Below the pieces are notes generated by a model. The model ran no database searches. It was not told the origin of the DNA and saw only the letters and a program-made list of their open reading frames with translations. A DNA stretch of 64,000 bases. It comes from Anaerolineales bacterium UBA3499. Lineage in GTDB: Bacteria; Chloroflexota; Anaerolineae; Anaerolineales; UBA11657. The position numbers and the translations under genes are program-made. Where the stretch lies: the NCBI GenBank assembly GCA_002377585.1, contig DFQC01000051.1:7211-71210 (forward strand), in the 5' to 3' direction. This document shows positions 20,797 to 25,679 of this stretch, one piece after another (positions within the stretch are counted from its first letter, which is position 1; each line of letters starts with the position of its first letter).

Positions 20797-21897
20797 ATGA
20801 ATTTTCTAGGACTTGAATCTAGCCAATGGATTGATATAGGGATTTCTGCCGTAGTATTGGTAGTTGTGCCTACCCTCGGTCGTAAGATAGTAACTAAGTG
20901 GCTTATTCGATTAATACAAACCATCGTTGGACGCACAGAAACTAAACTAGATGATGCATTGCTCCCAGCTGCCCGAACACCAATCTATTGGCTTGTCATT
21001 GCAGCAACTACACACTGGGCCATATTGAGATTAGCATTCTTGCCATTTGCATTGTTGCCGTTCTGGACACATTTCTTTTTTGTAGCTTACCTCACTCTCA
21101 CTGTTATTCTGTTGTGGAGAAGTGTCTCAGCATTTTTTGGCTGGTATACACAGCACATAACAGAACATTCTGATCCAAGACTATTGACTCAAGCCGTACC
21201 TTTACTACGAAGAGTAATACTTGGAATTGTTGGAGGTATAGCAATAATAATCTTGCTAGGACGCTTTGATGTTGATGTCAGTGCACTTGTAGCCACAATG
21301 GGAATAGGTTCATTAGCCATAGCACTAGCTGCACAGGCAGCACTTTCAGACACTATCAGTGGCATATTAATTATGATAGATCGCCCTTTCAGGATAGGTG
21401 ACCGAATCGAAATCAGAGATCTAAACACTTGGGGTAATGTGATAGATATAGGTCTAAGAAGCACTAGAATTCAGACATTAGACAATAGAACAGTGATTGT
21501 ACCCAACTCAGTTATAGAAAAAAGCCTTGTAGTTAATCATTCTTTCCCGGATACACATTATCGAATCCAAATGGAGGTGGGTGTTGCCTACGGTACTGAT
21601 TTAGAGTTTGCCCGAACGACATTAATAGATGCTATCAGAAATGTTGATGGAGTTCTTGACAATAAACCAGTCGACGCTCTTTTTCTGAACTTCGGAGATT
21701 CAGCTCTAATATTCAGAATGCGTTGGTGGATTGAAAGCTACATTGATACTCGACCAATGTTTGATAGAGTAAACACAGCTGTATATAACGCATTACGATC
21801 AGCAGACATCTTGATACCTTTTCCTCAACGTGAAGTACGAATTATTCAAGAATCAACTGCATCTACAACTAAAGACTATATTGATCATCGTGGCTAA
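20797..21897 (+). CDS. mscS: Small-conductance mechanosensitive channel family protein
   Basis: MGIGSLAIALAAQ...DRPFRIGDRI...IGLRSTRI...IVPNS motifs with extra N-terminal TM helices. Confidence 0.9.
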   Translation: MNFLGLESSQWIDIGISAVVLVVVPTLGRKIVTKWLIRLIQTIVGRTETKLDDALLPAARTPIYWLVIAATTHWAILRLAFLPFALLPFWTHFFFVAYLTLTVILLWRSVSAFFGWYTQHITEHSDPRLLTQAVPLLRRVILGIVGGIAIIILLGRFDVDVSALVATMGIGSLAIALAAQAALSDTISGILIMIDRPFRIGDRIEIRDLNTWGNVIDIGLRSTRIQTLDNRTVIVPNSVIEKSLVVNHSFPDTHYRIQMEVGVAYGTDLEFARTTLIDAIRNVDGVLDNKPVDALFLNFGDSALIFRMRWWIESYIDTRPMFDRVNTAVYNALRSADILIPFPQREVRIIQESTASTTKDYIDHRG

Positions 21898-21924: not shown

Positions 21925-21953
21925 TTGACCTTCACACTACCGTCAGGTATAAT
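21925..21953 (+). promoter_or_regulatory. Sigma70 promoter of the rpmH operon
   Basis: TTGACC, 17 bp spacer, TATAAT. Confidence 0.85.
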
Positions 21954-22047: not shown

Positions 22048-22263
22048 ATGCCTAAGAGAACGTATCAACCAAAAATCAGGAGACGTGCAAGAGTTCACGG
22101 ATTCCGAAAACGCATGAGCACTGCAGGTGGCAAGAAAGTTCTTAAGTCTAGACGACGTAAGGGACGTAGCGTACTAGCACCACAGCGAGTCCATGTTAAA
22201 CCACATGTAGACTGGAATGGAACTAAAAGTGGTAGTGCTTCAAGCAATAATAAGCGTAAATAA
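22048..22263 (+). CDS. rpmH: 50S ribosomal protein bL34 with C-terminal extension
   Basis: [23 protein letters not shown]...RRRKGR; GAGG SD. Confidence 0.97.
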
Positions 22264-22284: not shown

Positions 22285-22635
22285 ATGATTGTTATGCGCA
22301 GACAAAATGACTTTCGAAGAGTAAAACATTCCGGGAAATCGTGGGTACATCCGCTAGCGGTTTTACAGATTATAAAAAATTCACGGTCATATTCAAGAAT
22401 AGGTTTTGTGGCAAGCAGACATGTGGGAAACGCTGTCAAGAGAAATAGAGTTAAACGTCTGATGCGCGAAGCATTTCACCATCATGAATCAAACATTTTA
22501 GATGGTTGGGACTTGCTATTAATTGCCAGGCCTACCCTAGGTAATTGTAATGTAGATGATGTCATTTCAGCAGTATATTATCTACTATCACAATCTGCTC
22601 TATTGATGAACTCAGGTACAGAGAACTCTAGATGA
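22285..22635 (+). CDS. rnpA: Ribonuclease P protein component
   Basis: RIGFVASRHVGNAVKRNRVKRLMRE (RNR motif); position after rpmH. Confidence 0.95.
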   Translation: MIVMRRQNDFRRVKHSGKSWVHPLAVLQIIKNSRSYSRIGFVASRHVGNAVKRNRVKRLMREAFHHHESNILDGWDLLLIARPTLGNCNVDDVISAVYYLLSQSALLMNSGTENSR

Positions 22636-22880
22636 AAAATTTGTTCCTTACTGCAATAATGCTATACAGAAAATATGTTTCACCCTTAATCCCACCTAGT
22701 TGTCGTTTTCAACCTACATGCTCAGAATATGGTTATGAAGCAATTTTGAGATTCGGGATTATTAAGGGTTCGACTCTTCTTTTACGTCGGGTTTTAAAAT
22801 GCCATCCCTTCAACCCGGGAGGTTATGATCCTATACCTAGCCAAGCTGATAATATAAACTTCCGTATGGGTAATGGCTAA
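22632..22880 (+). CDS. yidD: Membrane protein insertion efficiency factor YidD
   Basis: CRFQPTCSEY...KCHPFNPGGYDP. Confidence 0.95.
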   Translation: MKNLFLTAIMLYRKYVSPLIPPSCRFQPTCSEYGYEAILRFGIIKGSTLLLRRVLKCHPFNPGGYDPIPSQADNINFRMGNG

Positions 22881-22892
22881 AAGTTTGACATT

Positions 22893-23996
22893 ATGACCAT
22901 ATTCAAACATCTGATAAAACACAAATTACACATAGCTATTCTCACCATTCCCATCACACTATTAATGGTAGGTTGCAGTGGTGCTATGCCAGCAAGTTCA
23001 TGGCCGAATTCAATTATGGCCGACAATAATCTTATAATAGCAAACAATAATGCTGTTTATGCCATATCATCAGACTTTGGTAAGTTAGTGTGGAAATTTC
23101 CCGACAAGCCTGATAGTACTAGAAGTCAATTCTATACATCGCCAGCATATACTAACAATTCAATAGTAATAGGTTCAGATAATAAGCACGCTTTTACTAT
23201 TGACATCACAAATGGAAATGAGGTTTGGAATTTCGATGCTACAAACAACAAGTCTGGTACAGCACCAACTGGCATCAGTGTAGAATCAGAATTAGCATTT
23301 TTTACATCTGAAAACACGTTGTACGCGCTGCGCATTTCAAACGGTCAAACAGCATGGAAATTCGAATCAGCAAAAGAACTATGGGCTCCACCTTCTTCAA
23401 ATGGTCAATACGTGTTTTTGCCCGGAATGGATCACACTTTAACATCAATTGACATTAGTAATGGATCGCAAATATGGCAACAGCATCTTACAGGTGCCTT
23501 AGCCGATTCTCCCACCATTTATCAAGAAACCCTGTATACAGGATCGTTATCTAATAGTGTATATGCTATCGATGCTTCAAATGGCATGATAATATGGGAA
23601 TTTGAAGCAAAAGGATGGGTTTGGGGTAGTCCTATGGTAATTGACGATTATGTATTTTTTGGCGATTTAGACGGATATGTGTATGCTCTAAACAGAGCAA
23701 ACGGACGTGAAGTGTGGACTAGTCAACAACTTGACAGTGCATCACGGGGAACACCAGCATATAGTGATGGTAATTTGTTTGTAACCAGTGATAACGGATT
23801 TGTATACTCGATAGACGCTATTAGTGGAAATACAGTCTGGAATATTGAAATTGACAGTAAAAATGCCGACCGACTTTTAGCGGACCCAATCGCCCATAAT
23901 GGATTACTATATATTACCTCGATGAATGGTGAAAATATAGTGCATGCCATCAATCAATCAGATGGTGTAATTGTGTGGAAATTTAATCCGGAATAG
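22893..23996 (+). CDS. PQQ-like (BamB-like) beta-propeller repeat lipoprotein
   Basis: Lipobox LMVG-C; repeated Trp-docking blades such as LYALRISNGQTAWKF, VYAIDASNGMIIWEF, VYALNRANGREVWT. Confidence 0.88.
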   Translation: MTIFKHLIKHKLHIAILTIPITLLMVGCSGAMPASSWPNSIMADNNLIIANNNAVYAISSDFGKLVWKFPDKPDSTRSQFYTSPAYTNNSIVIGSDNKHAFTIDITNGNEVWNFDATNNKSGTAPTGISVESELAFFTSENTLYALRISNGQTAWKFESAKELWAPPSSNGQYVFLPGMDHTLTSIDISNGSQIWQQHLTGALADSPTIYQETLYTGSLSNSVYAIDASNGMIIWEFEAKGWVWGSPMVIDDYVFFGDLDGYVYALNRANGREVWTSQQLDSASRGTPAYSDGNLFVTSDNGFVYSIDAISGNTVWNIEIDSKNADRLLADPIAHNGLLYITSMNGENIVHAINQSDGVIVWKFNPE

Positions 23997-24036: not shown

Positions 24037-24975
24037 ATGTGGAATCAATTAGTCATTTACCCATTTACTAACTCACTATTACTACTCTATAAAGTAATGG
24101 GTGATAGTTTCACGCTTTCATTAATTATACTGACTTTGGCAATACGTTTACTCCTAATGCCTCTAACAGCCAAGCAACAGAAATCTCAGATGAAAATGCA
24201 GGCCATGCAACCTGATATTAAGAGGATACAAGAGAAATATAAGGGAGAGCCGGAACGTATGCAGAAAGAGCTACAAAAGATTGGTTATAGTCCGGCATCA
24301 ATGCTAGCAGGATGCCTACCAATGTTGATTCAGTTCCCAATCCTCATTGGAATGTATCGCTCTATCATGCATGCAATTCCAGCAGCTCCACTGCAAATGA
24401 TTGATCTCTACAAAGCTACATACCAATCATGGTTCCCAGAATTCCACAAAATGATACCTGTGGAGCGTAACTTTCTCTGGATGGACCTTAGTCAACCAGA
24501 TAGATTTTACCTAGACATATTGTCCGGTATTGGTGTGCCAGTTCTGCCTTTGTTAGTATATATAACCACAGTACTGCAGCAAAAGATGATGACTCCTGCT
24601 ACTGCTGACCCCAACGATCAATCTGCGCAAATGCAGCGTTCCATGATGACAATGATGCCATTGATGTTTGCATTTTTTGCGCTCCAGTTCTCATCAGGAC
24701 TCTCAATTTATTTCATCACCTCCAATATAGCAACTGTAGTCCAATATATGCTACTAAATCGGGAAAGGTTAGAGTGGGAACCAGTCAAAATAGCAGGTAT
24801 TTTTGAATTGCCAATACCTTCAGTCTCGGCACCCCCTCCTACGAAGCCGTCTCAACAATCTGAAAAAGGTGGTACTTCATCAAATCCAACCACTGTAGCT
24901 CAGGAAAAAATGAGCAGTAGAAAAGCAAAAAGGTTAAAAGCCAGAAAGGCCCGTGGAGGAAAACGTAGACGGTAA
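24037..24975 (+). CDS. yidC: YidC/Oxa1 membrane insertase, short monoderm type
   Basis: LAIRLLLMPL, MQAMQPDIKRIQEKYK, GCLPMLIQFPI, FLWMDLSQPD, GLSIYFITSN. Confidence 0.95.
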   Translation: MWNQLVIYPFTNSLLLLYKVMGDSFTLSLIILTLAIRLLLMPLTAKQQKSQMKMQAMQPDIKRIQEKYKGEPERMQKELQKIGYSPASMLAGCLPMLIQFPILIGMYRSIMHAIPAAPLQMIDLYKATYQSWFPEFHKMIPVERNFLWMDLSQPDRFYLDILSGIGVPVLPLLVYITTVLQQKMMTPATADPNDQSAQMQRSMMTMMPLMFAFFALQFSSGLSIYFITSNIATVVQYMLLNRERLEWEPVKIAGIFELPIPSVSAPPPTKPSQQSEKGGTSSNPTTVAQEKMSSRKAKRLKARKARGGKRRR

Positions 24976-25016: not shown

Positions 25017-25679
25017 ATGGAATTAAAGAATAGTGAACTGGAAATACATGCAAAGGATGTAGAAAGAGCCATTAATATAGCAGTATTAGAACTAGAGATG
25101 GATAGAGATGATTTAGACATTGATGTTCTTGATAATGGCGACATCAGTTCCGATAGTTTGGCTAGAATCGTCGCAAAAGTGCCAATAAATGAATACGATG
25201 ATGAGCCAAGATTAGTAACCATCAATCGGGTACTTACCGACTTACTGCACTATATGAATGTAGATGCCAATCTTTGTGTGCAAGATCAAGATGCAGACCC
25301 AACAGATAATAGATCTTCCATTAGAATCAATATTGCAGGAGATAAACTTTCTGCATTAATTGGTAGGCGCGGAGAAACATTAGCGAGCCTAGAGTTTCTG
25401 GTCAAATTAATTGTATCTAACAAACAAAATAGATGGACTAATATCAGTCTAGACATAGATGGTTACAAACAGAGACGAGAGCACCAACTCAAGCGTCTGG
25501 CTCAAAGAATGGCTGGCCAAGTACAGCAATTTGGACGTCCAATTGCACTCGAACCTATGCCTGCAAACGAAAGACGTATTGTTCATATCACACTGGAACG
25601 CAACCCTGAAGTTACCACAAATAGTACTGGGGATGGAAATCAGCGAAGAGTCAATATTCAACCCTCTCTACTACGATAA
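25017..25679 (+). CDS. jag: Jag/KhpB/EloR RNA-binding protein (Jag_N, KH, R3H)
   Basis: LIGRRGETLASLE KH motif, LEPMPANERRIVH R3H motif. Confidence 0.93.
   Translation: MELKNSELEIHAKDVERAINIAVLELEMDRDDLDIDVLDNGDISSDSLARIVAKVPINEYDDEPRLVTINRVLTDLLHYMNVDANLCVQDQDADPTDNRSSIRINIAGDKLSALIGRRGETLASLEFLVKLIVSNKQNRWTNISLDIDGYKQRREHQLKRLAQRMAGQVQQFGRPIALEPMPANERRIVHITLERNPEVTTNSTGDGNQRRVNIQPSLLR

Follow-up and report, generated by a model that had tools for sequence, protein, structure and literature searches.

A BamB-like beta-propeller lipoprotein encoded between yidD and yidC in Anaerolineae and Dehalococcoidia is a candidate outer-face partner of YidC

The locus described here lies in a 64,000-nucleotide stretch of DNA from Anaerolineales bacterium UBA3499 (assembly GCA_002377585.1, contig DFQC01000051.1, positions 7,211 to 71,210), which was analysed as a whole and is called the window below. 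On its + strand, between positions 22048 and 27490, the list of open reading frames and their matches to Pfam and NCBIfam give the gene order rpmH, rnpA, yidD, propeller gene, yidC, jag, parA and parB. The propeller gene (22893..23996, + strand) encodes a 367-residue BamB-like lipoprotein with an eight-bladed beta-propeller of the pyrroloquinoline quinone (PQQ) type, as assigned from the Pfam families PF13570 and PF13360, an AlphaFold2 model and a Foldseek comparison. It begins 12 nt after the end of yidD, the gene of the membrane protein insertion efficiency factor (22632..22880, + strand; PF01809, E-value 2.9e-28; TIGR00278, 79.8 bits, cut-off 40). After the propeller stop, 40 nt follow until the start of yidC, which encodes a short form of 312 residues (24037..24975, + strand; PF02096, 4.9e-47; TIGR03592, 179.7 bits). 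The propeller has a BamB-like, eight-bladed fold and none of the features of a cofactor enzyme, its gene is packed between yidD and yidC, and its hosts are without BamA.

Both Pfam families match the protein above their gathering thresholds, PF13570 at 1e-64 (219.4 bits vs a threshold of 133) and PF13360 (PQQ_2/BamB) at 2e-55 (188.6 vs 27.6). The repeat pattern shows eight tryptophans, W67, W112, W155, W195, W235, W275, W316 and W362. An AlphaFold2 model built on an alignment of 41 orthologues reached a predicted local distance difference test score (pLDDT) of 88.5 and a predicted template modelling score (pTM) of 0.84, with approximately 31 strands arranged in eight four-stranded blades. When this fold was compared with solved structures using Foldseek, the top 19 matches were all BamB, the best of them from E. 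coli and Klebsiella (TM-score ~0.75, E 1e-24, ~20% identity). By sequence, the closest natural solved relatives were the archaeal propeller 3HXJ and the kinase-linked propellers 7EQ5 and 7DXN (E 4e-62 to 2e-48), with BamB next at 1e-47. The window protein is the only PQQ-type propeller match in its own genome. In addition to the repeat residues, blades 4 to 6 (23382..23633, + strand) carry two conserved motifs that do not follow the blade period, W164-x-x-P167 and W242-x-W244-x-x-P247. Across 73 orthologues from both Anaerolineae and Dehalococcoidia, conservation is 100% for W164, 96% for P167, 95% for W242 and 99% for W244, and these residues are candidates for a binding face of the propeller.

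The N-terminus of the protein (MTIFKHLIKHKLHIAILTIPITLLMVGC) is a lipoprotein signal peptide with a lipobox over residues 1-28 (22893..22976, + strand). The lipobox, LLMVGC, closes the signal as ITLLMVGC28. Cys28 (22974-22976) is unchanged across the 41-orthologue alignment and is predicted from the sequence to carry the lipid and to begin the mature protein. The genome encodes both lgt (1.7e-65) and lspA (1.1e-37), and signal, lipobox Cys and processing genes of the lipoprotein pathway are therefore all in place. Trp37 (23001..23003, + strand), which belongs to a conserved S/G-W-P/S-G/N motif and is also invariant in the same alignment, opens the first strand (E39-43). Of 73 unique syntenic loci, 64 matched the pattern of a lipobox followed by this Trp; among the nine that did not, several keep the lipobox Cys without the Trp, and LAAC, LTGC, LSGC and LSAC were seen as lipobox variants across the family. 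In the 64 loci with the motif, the Trp follows 7-19 residues (median 9) after the lipid-anchor Cys. From a tether of approximately 9 residues we infer that the propeller must sit close to the membrane surface. As to which membrane this is, a search for BamA/Omp85 (PF01103) gave no match in the own genome and none in 251 of 251 sampled Chloroflexota genomes, while it was positive in seven diderm controls. The propeller therefore cannot be a subunit of the beta-barrel assembly machinery (the BAM complex); since the phylum has neither BamA nor an outer membrane, its anchor would be in the cytoplasmic membrane.

An orthologue was present in all 41 sampled Anaerolineales genomes, which represent 18 families, and the order rpmH-rnpA-yidD-propeller-yidC-jag was found in 43 of 43 fetched loci from the same order. 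A further set of named metagenome-assembled genomes (MAGs), covering Anaerolineae and Aggregatilineales, showed synteny in 27 of 34 loci; in addition to these 27, propeller, yidC and jag stand at the contig end of a Dehalococcoidia MAG in this set, and the exceptions are paralogues. Sampling of the whole phylum gave some PQQ-propeller match at E <= 1e-10 in 165 of 251 genomes. The neighbourhood was checked for 36 of the best matches from outside Anaerolineales. Thirty of these were syntenic, including all full-length matches in open frames of 356-461 residues, and the other six were partial-coverage paralogues. By our own count, approximately 56 of the 251 Chloroflexota genomes carry the syntenic propeller gene. 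The insertion was found in Dehalococcoides mccartyi, Dehalogenimonas, Dehalococcoidia MAGs, Brevefilum fermentans and Aggregatilineales. A plain yidD-yidC arrangement that lacks the propeller was found in a Caldilineaceae genome, Thermogemmatispora (Ktedonobacteria), Oscillochloris (Chloroflexia), Thermomicrobium roseum and a Limnocylindria-like genome. The window's close relatives belong to uncultured marine Anaerolineales, for instance UBA3001, UBA1136 and MAGs from Tara Oceans.

Spacing within the syntenic loci is tight, with a median of 22 nt between the stop of the propeller gene and the start of yidC (73 unique loci) and the yidD stop approximately 89 nt ahead of the propeller Cys codon. 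Streamlined genomes of 0.9-1.9 Mb retain the syntenic propeller as their sole propeller match. In each of the trees calculated for the propeller and for YidC, Anaerolineae form one clade and Dehalococcoidia-type sequences another. Because of this distribution of synteny across classes, the insertion is old and vertically inherited in Anaerolineae (minus Caldilineales and one other lineage) and in Dehalococcoidia-type lineages, and the data are compatible with a single origin. A first-pass annotation, made from the letters of the window, had described a lipobox protein with about eight PQQ-type blades inside the rpmH-rnpA-yidD-yidC-jag operon and had suggested a neighbourhood survey and a check for bamA. 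Its description is borne out by the modelled blades and the invariant Cys28 as well as by gene order and family matches. The survey showed that the insertion is not specific to one genome and spans Anaerolineae and Dehalococcoidia, and bamA is indeed absent, from this genome as from the sampled phylum.

The YidC encoded downstream begins at the helix preceding transmembrane helix 2 (TM2) and has neither TM1 nor a P1 domain. Every Chloroflexota YidC that we examined starts at the same point, whether the propeller is present or not. A difference was found in the loop between TM3 and TM4, where a comparison of 84 propeller-linked and 20 unlinked YidCs singled out the outer-face segment P118-P141 (24388..24459, + strand). 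Each of the 84 propeller-linked YidCs has a proline-bounded segment of 21-27 residues with both P118 and P141. Among the 20 propeller-less Chloroflexota YidCs, P141 was found in none and the segment is absent in 11. Both propeller and segment are absent in the Caldilineaceae genome and in one further family that is assigned to the class of the window. The length of the whole TM3-TM4 loop was rejected as a discriminator, as the medians (53 vs 44 residues) come with overlapping ranges and only the proline-bounded sub-segment separates the groups. On the strength of this comparison, P118-P141 is a candidate docking site for the propeller, and its co-occurrence with the propeller is the pattern expected of such a site.

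Two other features of YidC were observed. Its C-terminal tail (24889-24972) is strongly basic (...SSRKAKRLKARKARGGKRRR) and similar to the tails with which Oxa1 and Gram-positive YidC2 bind ribosomes. In two Limnocylindria-like genomes, YidC lies in an open frame of 461-500 residues with a TM3-TM4 loop of up to 115 residues, and an open frame of 91-129 codons is found upstream of yidC; a lineage without the propeller may here have a YidC with an enlarged outer-face part.

Data on expression are available for D. mccartyi 195, whose propeller is DET1041, annotated as ‘PQQ enzyme repeat domain protein’ and assigned here by gene order. In a transcript network of D. mccartyi, DET1041 (PQQ repeat protein) is linked to DET1039 (Jag) with a correlation of 0.93 (PMC5102406). 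Our data are best explained by a housekeeping role of this lipoprotein in Anaerolineae and Dehalococcoidia. As to its function, the propeller is a strong candidate, though an unproven one, for an outer-face partner or accessory of YidC in YidC-dependent membrane-protein biogenesis, and we give this role about an even chance. An extracytoplasmic partnership with YidC, with the propeller acting in trans, had also been proposed in the first-pass annotation. In its favour are the BamB-like fold, the synteny, the tight spacing without an internal terminator-like site, the co-expression of DET1041 with jag, the retention in genomes of 0.9-1.5 Mb, the vertical inheritance seen in both trees, the loop signature and, as a weak point, the distance correlation described below. 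The part of the proposal that argued from a YidC without P1 did not stand: the observation is correct for the window, but it is uninformative, as all Chloroflexota YidCs examined are without P1.

If the propeller is a partner of YidC, it would be exported by Sec and then processed by Lgt and LspA. Cys28 would hold it, on its short tether, at the outer leaflet of the cell's single membrane, and it would associate with YidC, most likely via the loop segment P118-P141. The propeller might then serve as an outer-face platform that receives, shields or hands on translocated segments of YidC-inserted proteins, with YidC inserting alone or together with Sec and the propeller assisting outside. Such a role would be comparable to that of P1 for Gram-negative YidC, of the lumenal EMC1 propellers for EMC3 and of BamB for BamA. 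A more far-reaching model is a three-part YidC holo-insertase, in which YidD would occupy the inner face, YidC would contribute its core of five helices in the membrane and the lipid-anchored propeller would sit outside on the proline-bounded TM3-TM4 loop. We put this model forward tentatively and consider it rather unlikely. If it were true, it would represent a bacterial counterpart of EMC1-EMC3, either independent or of ancient common design, and the first known extracytoplasmic subunit of a monoderm YidC.

Several observations weigh against a functional link between propeller and YidC. The missing P1 domain and TM1 had to be rejected as an explanation for the propeller. The argument that the propeller replaces P1 is weak because the YidCs of the propeller-less Chloroflexia, Ktedonobacteria, Thermomicrobium and Caldilineaceae are equally P1-less, and these other Chloroflexota lineages do without a propeller. 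Membership in the operon and co-transcription are by themselves weak evidence, since the operon also contains the unrelated genes rpmH, rnpA and jag. No fused open reading frame of propeller and YidC was seen in approximately 100 loci. A concatenated propeller and YidC profile, searched against 5.8 billion proteins, gave no fusion among the best 120 matches (8000 candidates scored), and a database search with Dehalococcoidia propellers listed, in its best 120, no protein that combines PF13360 with PF02096. In a pairwise-distance correlation of five operon genes, the pair of propeller and yidC ranked top (r 0.68, partial 0.48), but the partial value for propeller and rnpA was nearly as high (0.42), and this mirror-tree type of correlation, which has no genome-wide null and depends on protein length, was treated as weak. 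With respect to the loop, 9 of the 20 propeller-less YidCs have a long loop of some kind. The co-occurrence of loop and propeller also corresponds to very few independent evolutionary events, on a YidC tree whose branching order is unresolved. Finally, the structure model of YidC is of low confidence (pLDDT 62), which is too low for a fold search or for interpretation of the loop.

In one locus, the propeller stop directly abuts an in-frame GTG start of yidC (...GGQK*VLTDVWN...), and read-through would show a single frame there.

The propeller might instead be a general scaffold or chaperone lipoprotein of the envelope that has no specific link to YidC. Its place in the operon would then provide constitutive, growth-coupled expression and be kept by inheritance, and its uses might lie in S-layer or cell-wall assembly or in the docking of receptors or kinases. 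We consider this a serious alternative, although it is probably not the correct one. It would fit the already mixed functions of the rpmH-rnpA-yidD-yidC-jag operon, the use of PQQ-type propellers as generic interaction platforms in archaeal surface proteins and Ser/Thr kinases, the same kind of YidC in propeller-less Chloroflexota and the lack of propeller-YidC fusions in the loci and best database matches mentioned above. A general scaffold does not readily explain why adjacency is unbroken in approximately 100 orthologue loci of two classes while the linkage of jag and parA varies, or why the insertion falls exactly between two insertion-related genes. Moreover, the outer-loop signature of YidC accompanies the propeller, and the very short lipid tether places the propeller at the membrane surface and not at the wall. 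Like the window protein, the archaeal surface-protein and Ser/Thr kinase propellers (3HXJ, 7EQ5, 7DXN) are cofactor-free interaction domains outside a single membrane. However, they are parts of larger proteins or are not lipoproteins, and none of them is tied to yidC. The kinase-linked paralogues of Chloroflexota are encoded elsewhere in the genome and fall outside the syntenic clade, on a deep branch that is weakly supported. Many other Anaerolineales and Chloroflexota genomes contain an additional paralogue of ~630-690 residues, which database matches show to join a PQQ propeller with a Ser/Thr kinase; the window's own genome is without it.

The similarity to BamB raises the question of whether the protein is a true BamB orthologue, i.e. 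a relic of an outer-membrane-bearing Chloroflexota ancestor that outlasted BamA and is now vestigial or re-recruited. BamB (YfgL; PDB 3Q7M, 3PRW, 5D0O chain B) is likewise a lipid-anchored eight-bladed PQQ-type propeller of ~340-370 residues, and both proteins would be accessory scaffolds that are encoded or work beside a membrane-protein insertion catalyst. BamB structures are also the closest solved ones, at an identity of ~20%. The BamB models TIGR03300 and NF008351 do match the window protein, but their scores of 134.6 and 110.2 bits stay far under the equivalog cut-offs of 285.2 and 423, and in sequence the protein has nearer relatives in PQQ-like propellers of the archaeal and kinase type than in BamB. 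The gene neighbourhood differs as well: proteobacterial bamB stands in the order yfgM-bamB-der, whereas the window propeller has yidD and yidC as neighbours. In the tree, true BamB clusters with paralogues from diderm phyla, apart from the syntenic clade, although the deep branches are weakly supported. Taken together with the lack of BamA in all 251 sampled Chloroflexota and with the strong conservation of the gene, which speaks against a vestige, an origin as a BamB relic appears improbable. Far less probable still is that the protein is a quinoprotein (PQQ-dependent) dehydrogenase or works with some other cofactor as an enzyme outside the membrane, as the database names and a PF01011 match at 4.7e-23 might suggest. 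A dehydrogenase identity, which the first-pass annotation had named as a point to be checked, was rejected: TIGR03075 reached 78.3 bits vs a cut-off of 480 and TIGR03074 47.8 vs 833. Solved quinoprotein dehydrogenases have ~565-690 residues and align over single stretches of ~65-160 residues only (E 1e-12 to 1e-19), whereas the mature window protein is a bare propeller of ~340 residues. The biosynthesis marker pqqC (TIGR02111) was not found in the genome either, which is a weak point because the control genomes gave no match as well.

The names under which members of the family are widely annotated in databases, ‘outer membrane protein assembly factor BamB’, ‘dehydrogenase’ and ‘PQQ enzyme repeat domain protein’, fit neither the lack of BamA in every sampled Chloroflexota genome nor the proteins themselves, from which quinoprotein features are missing.

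A partnership of propeller and YidC can be compared with two other systems in which an outer-face module accompanies a related insertion catalyst. In Gram-negative YidC, the P1 domain is a beta-supersandwich fused between TM1 and TM2. Like the propeller, it is a large module on the outer face that goes with the conserved core of five helices in YidC; the propeller, however, is a separate lipoprotein, and within Chloroflexota the absence of P1 does not predict its presence. To our knowledge, no dedicated outer-face partner has been described for YidC in single-membrane bacteria. Our literature search gave no paper that ties the propeller protein to YidC. In the eukaryotic EMC, the partner of EMC3 is EMC1, which carries PQQ-like propeller repeats on the lumenal side of an insertase complex of the Oxa1 superfamily and has ~1000 residues, including DUF1620 and a transmembrane helix of its own at the C-terminus (PMC7188443). 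The window protein matches the Pfam family Beta-prop_EMC1_N (PF25293) weakly, with 38.7 bits vs a cut-off of 34. It has neither the C-terminal transmembrane helix nor DUF1620 and matches the propeller repeat only. The parallel to EMC1-EMC3 is thus one of analogy and not of membership, and the resemblance may merely reflect the shared fold of PQQ repeats.

A conserved single-copy propeller that is part of the yidC operon in two major classes of environmental bacteria provides a concrete and testable candidate. Its hosts include the bioremediation organism Dehalococcoides as well as abundant marine and wastewater Anaerolineae. If the propeller binds YidC, the pairing of a propeller with an insertion catalyst, as in BamB-BamA and EMC1-EMC3, would be known from the cytoplasmic membrane of bacteria as well, and thousands of entries that are named BamB or dehydrogenase in organisms without BamA would be corrected.

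Upstream of yidD, and overlapping it by 4 nt, lies rnpA, which encodes the protein component of RNase P (22285..22635, + strand; PF00825, 2.8e-23). It is preceded by rpmH (22048..22263, + strand; PF00468, 4e-19), which encodes ribosomal protein L34 with a C-terminal extension. The usual gene 3′ of yidC, jag/khpB, encodes an RNA-binding protein with R3H, KH and Jag_N domains (25017..25679, + strand; NF041568, 160.5 bits vs a cut-off of 145). Upstream of rpmH, a promoter-like site TTGACC-17-TATAAT (21925..21953, + strand) agrees with the consensus in 11 of 12 positions. Judged by this pattern match, it is the probable start of an rpmH-led transcription unit. A pattern search of the + strand between 21800 and 27700 showed no terminator-like sites and hence none internal to the operon.

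Some peculiarities were seen at the upstream end. The L34 of the window has 71 residues, compared with 44-46 in the Dehalococcoidia and Ktedonobacteria that were looked up. Anaerolineae L34 carries an additional 12-27 residues at the C-terminus with a conserved H-V-K-x-x-x-W (e.g. NNHVKKTNWKS), and the long form was also observed at eight other loci of our survey. In seven relatives, a second parA-like gene lies on the opposite strand upstream of rpmH, a position that is occupied in the window by a gene for an mscS-type channel (20797-21897).

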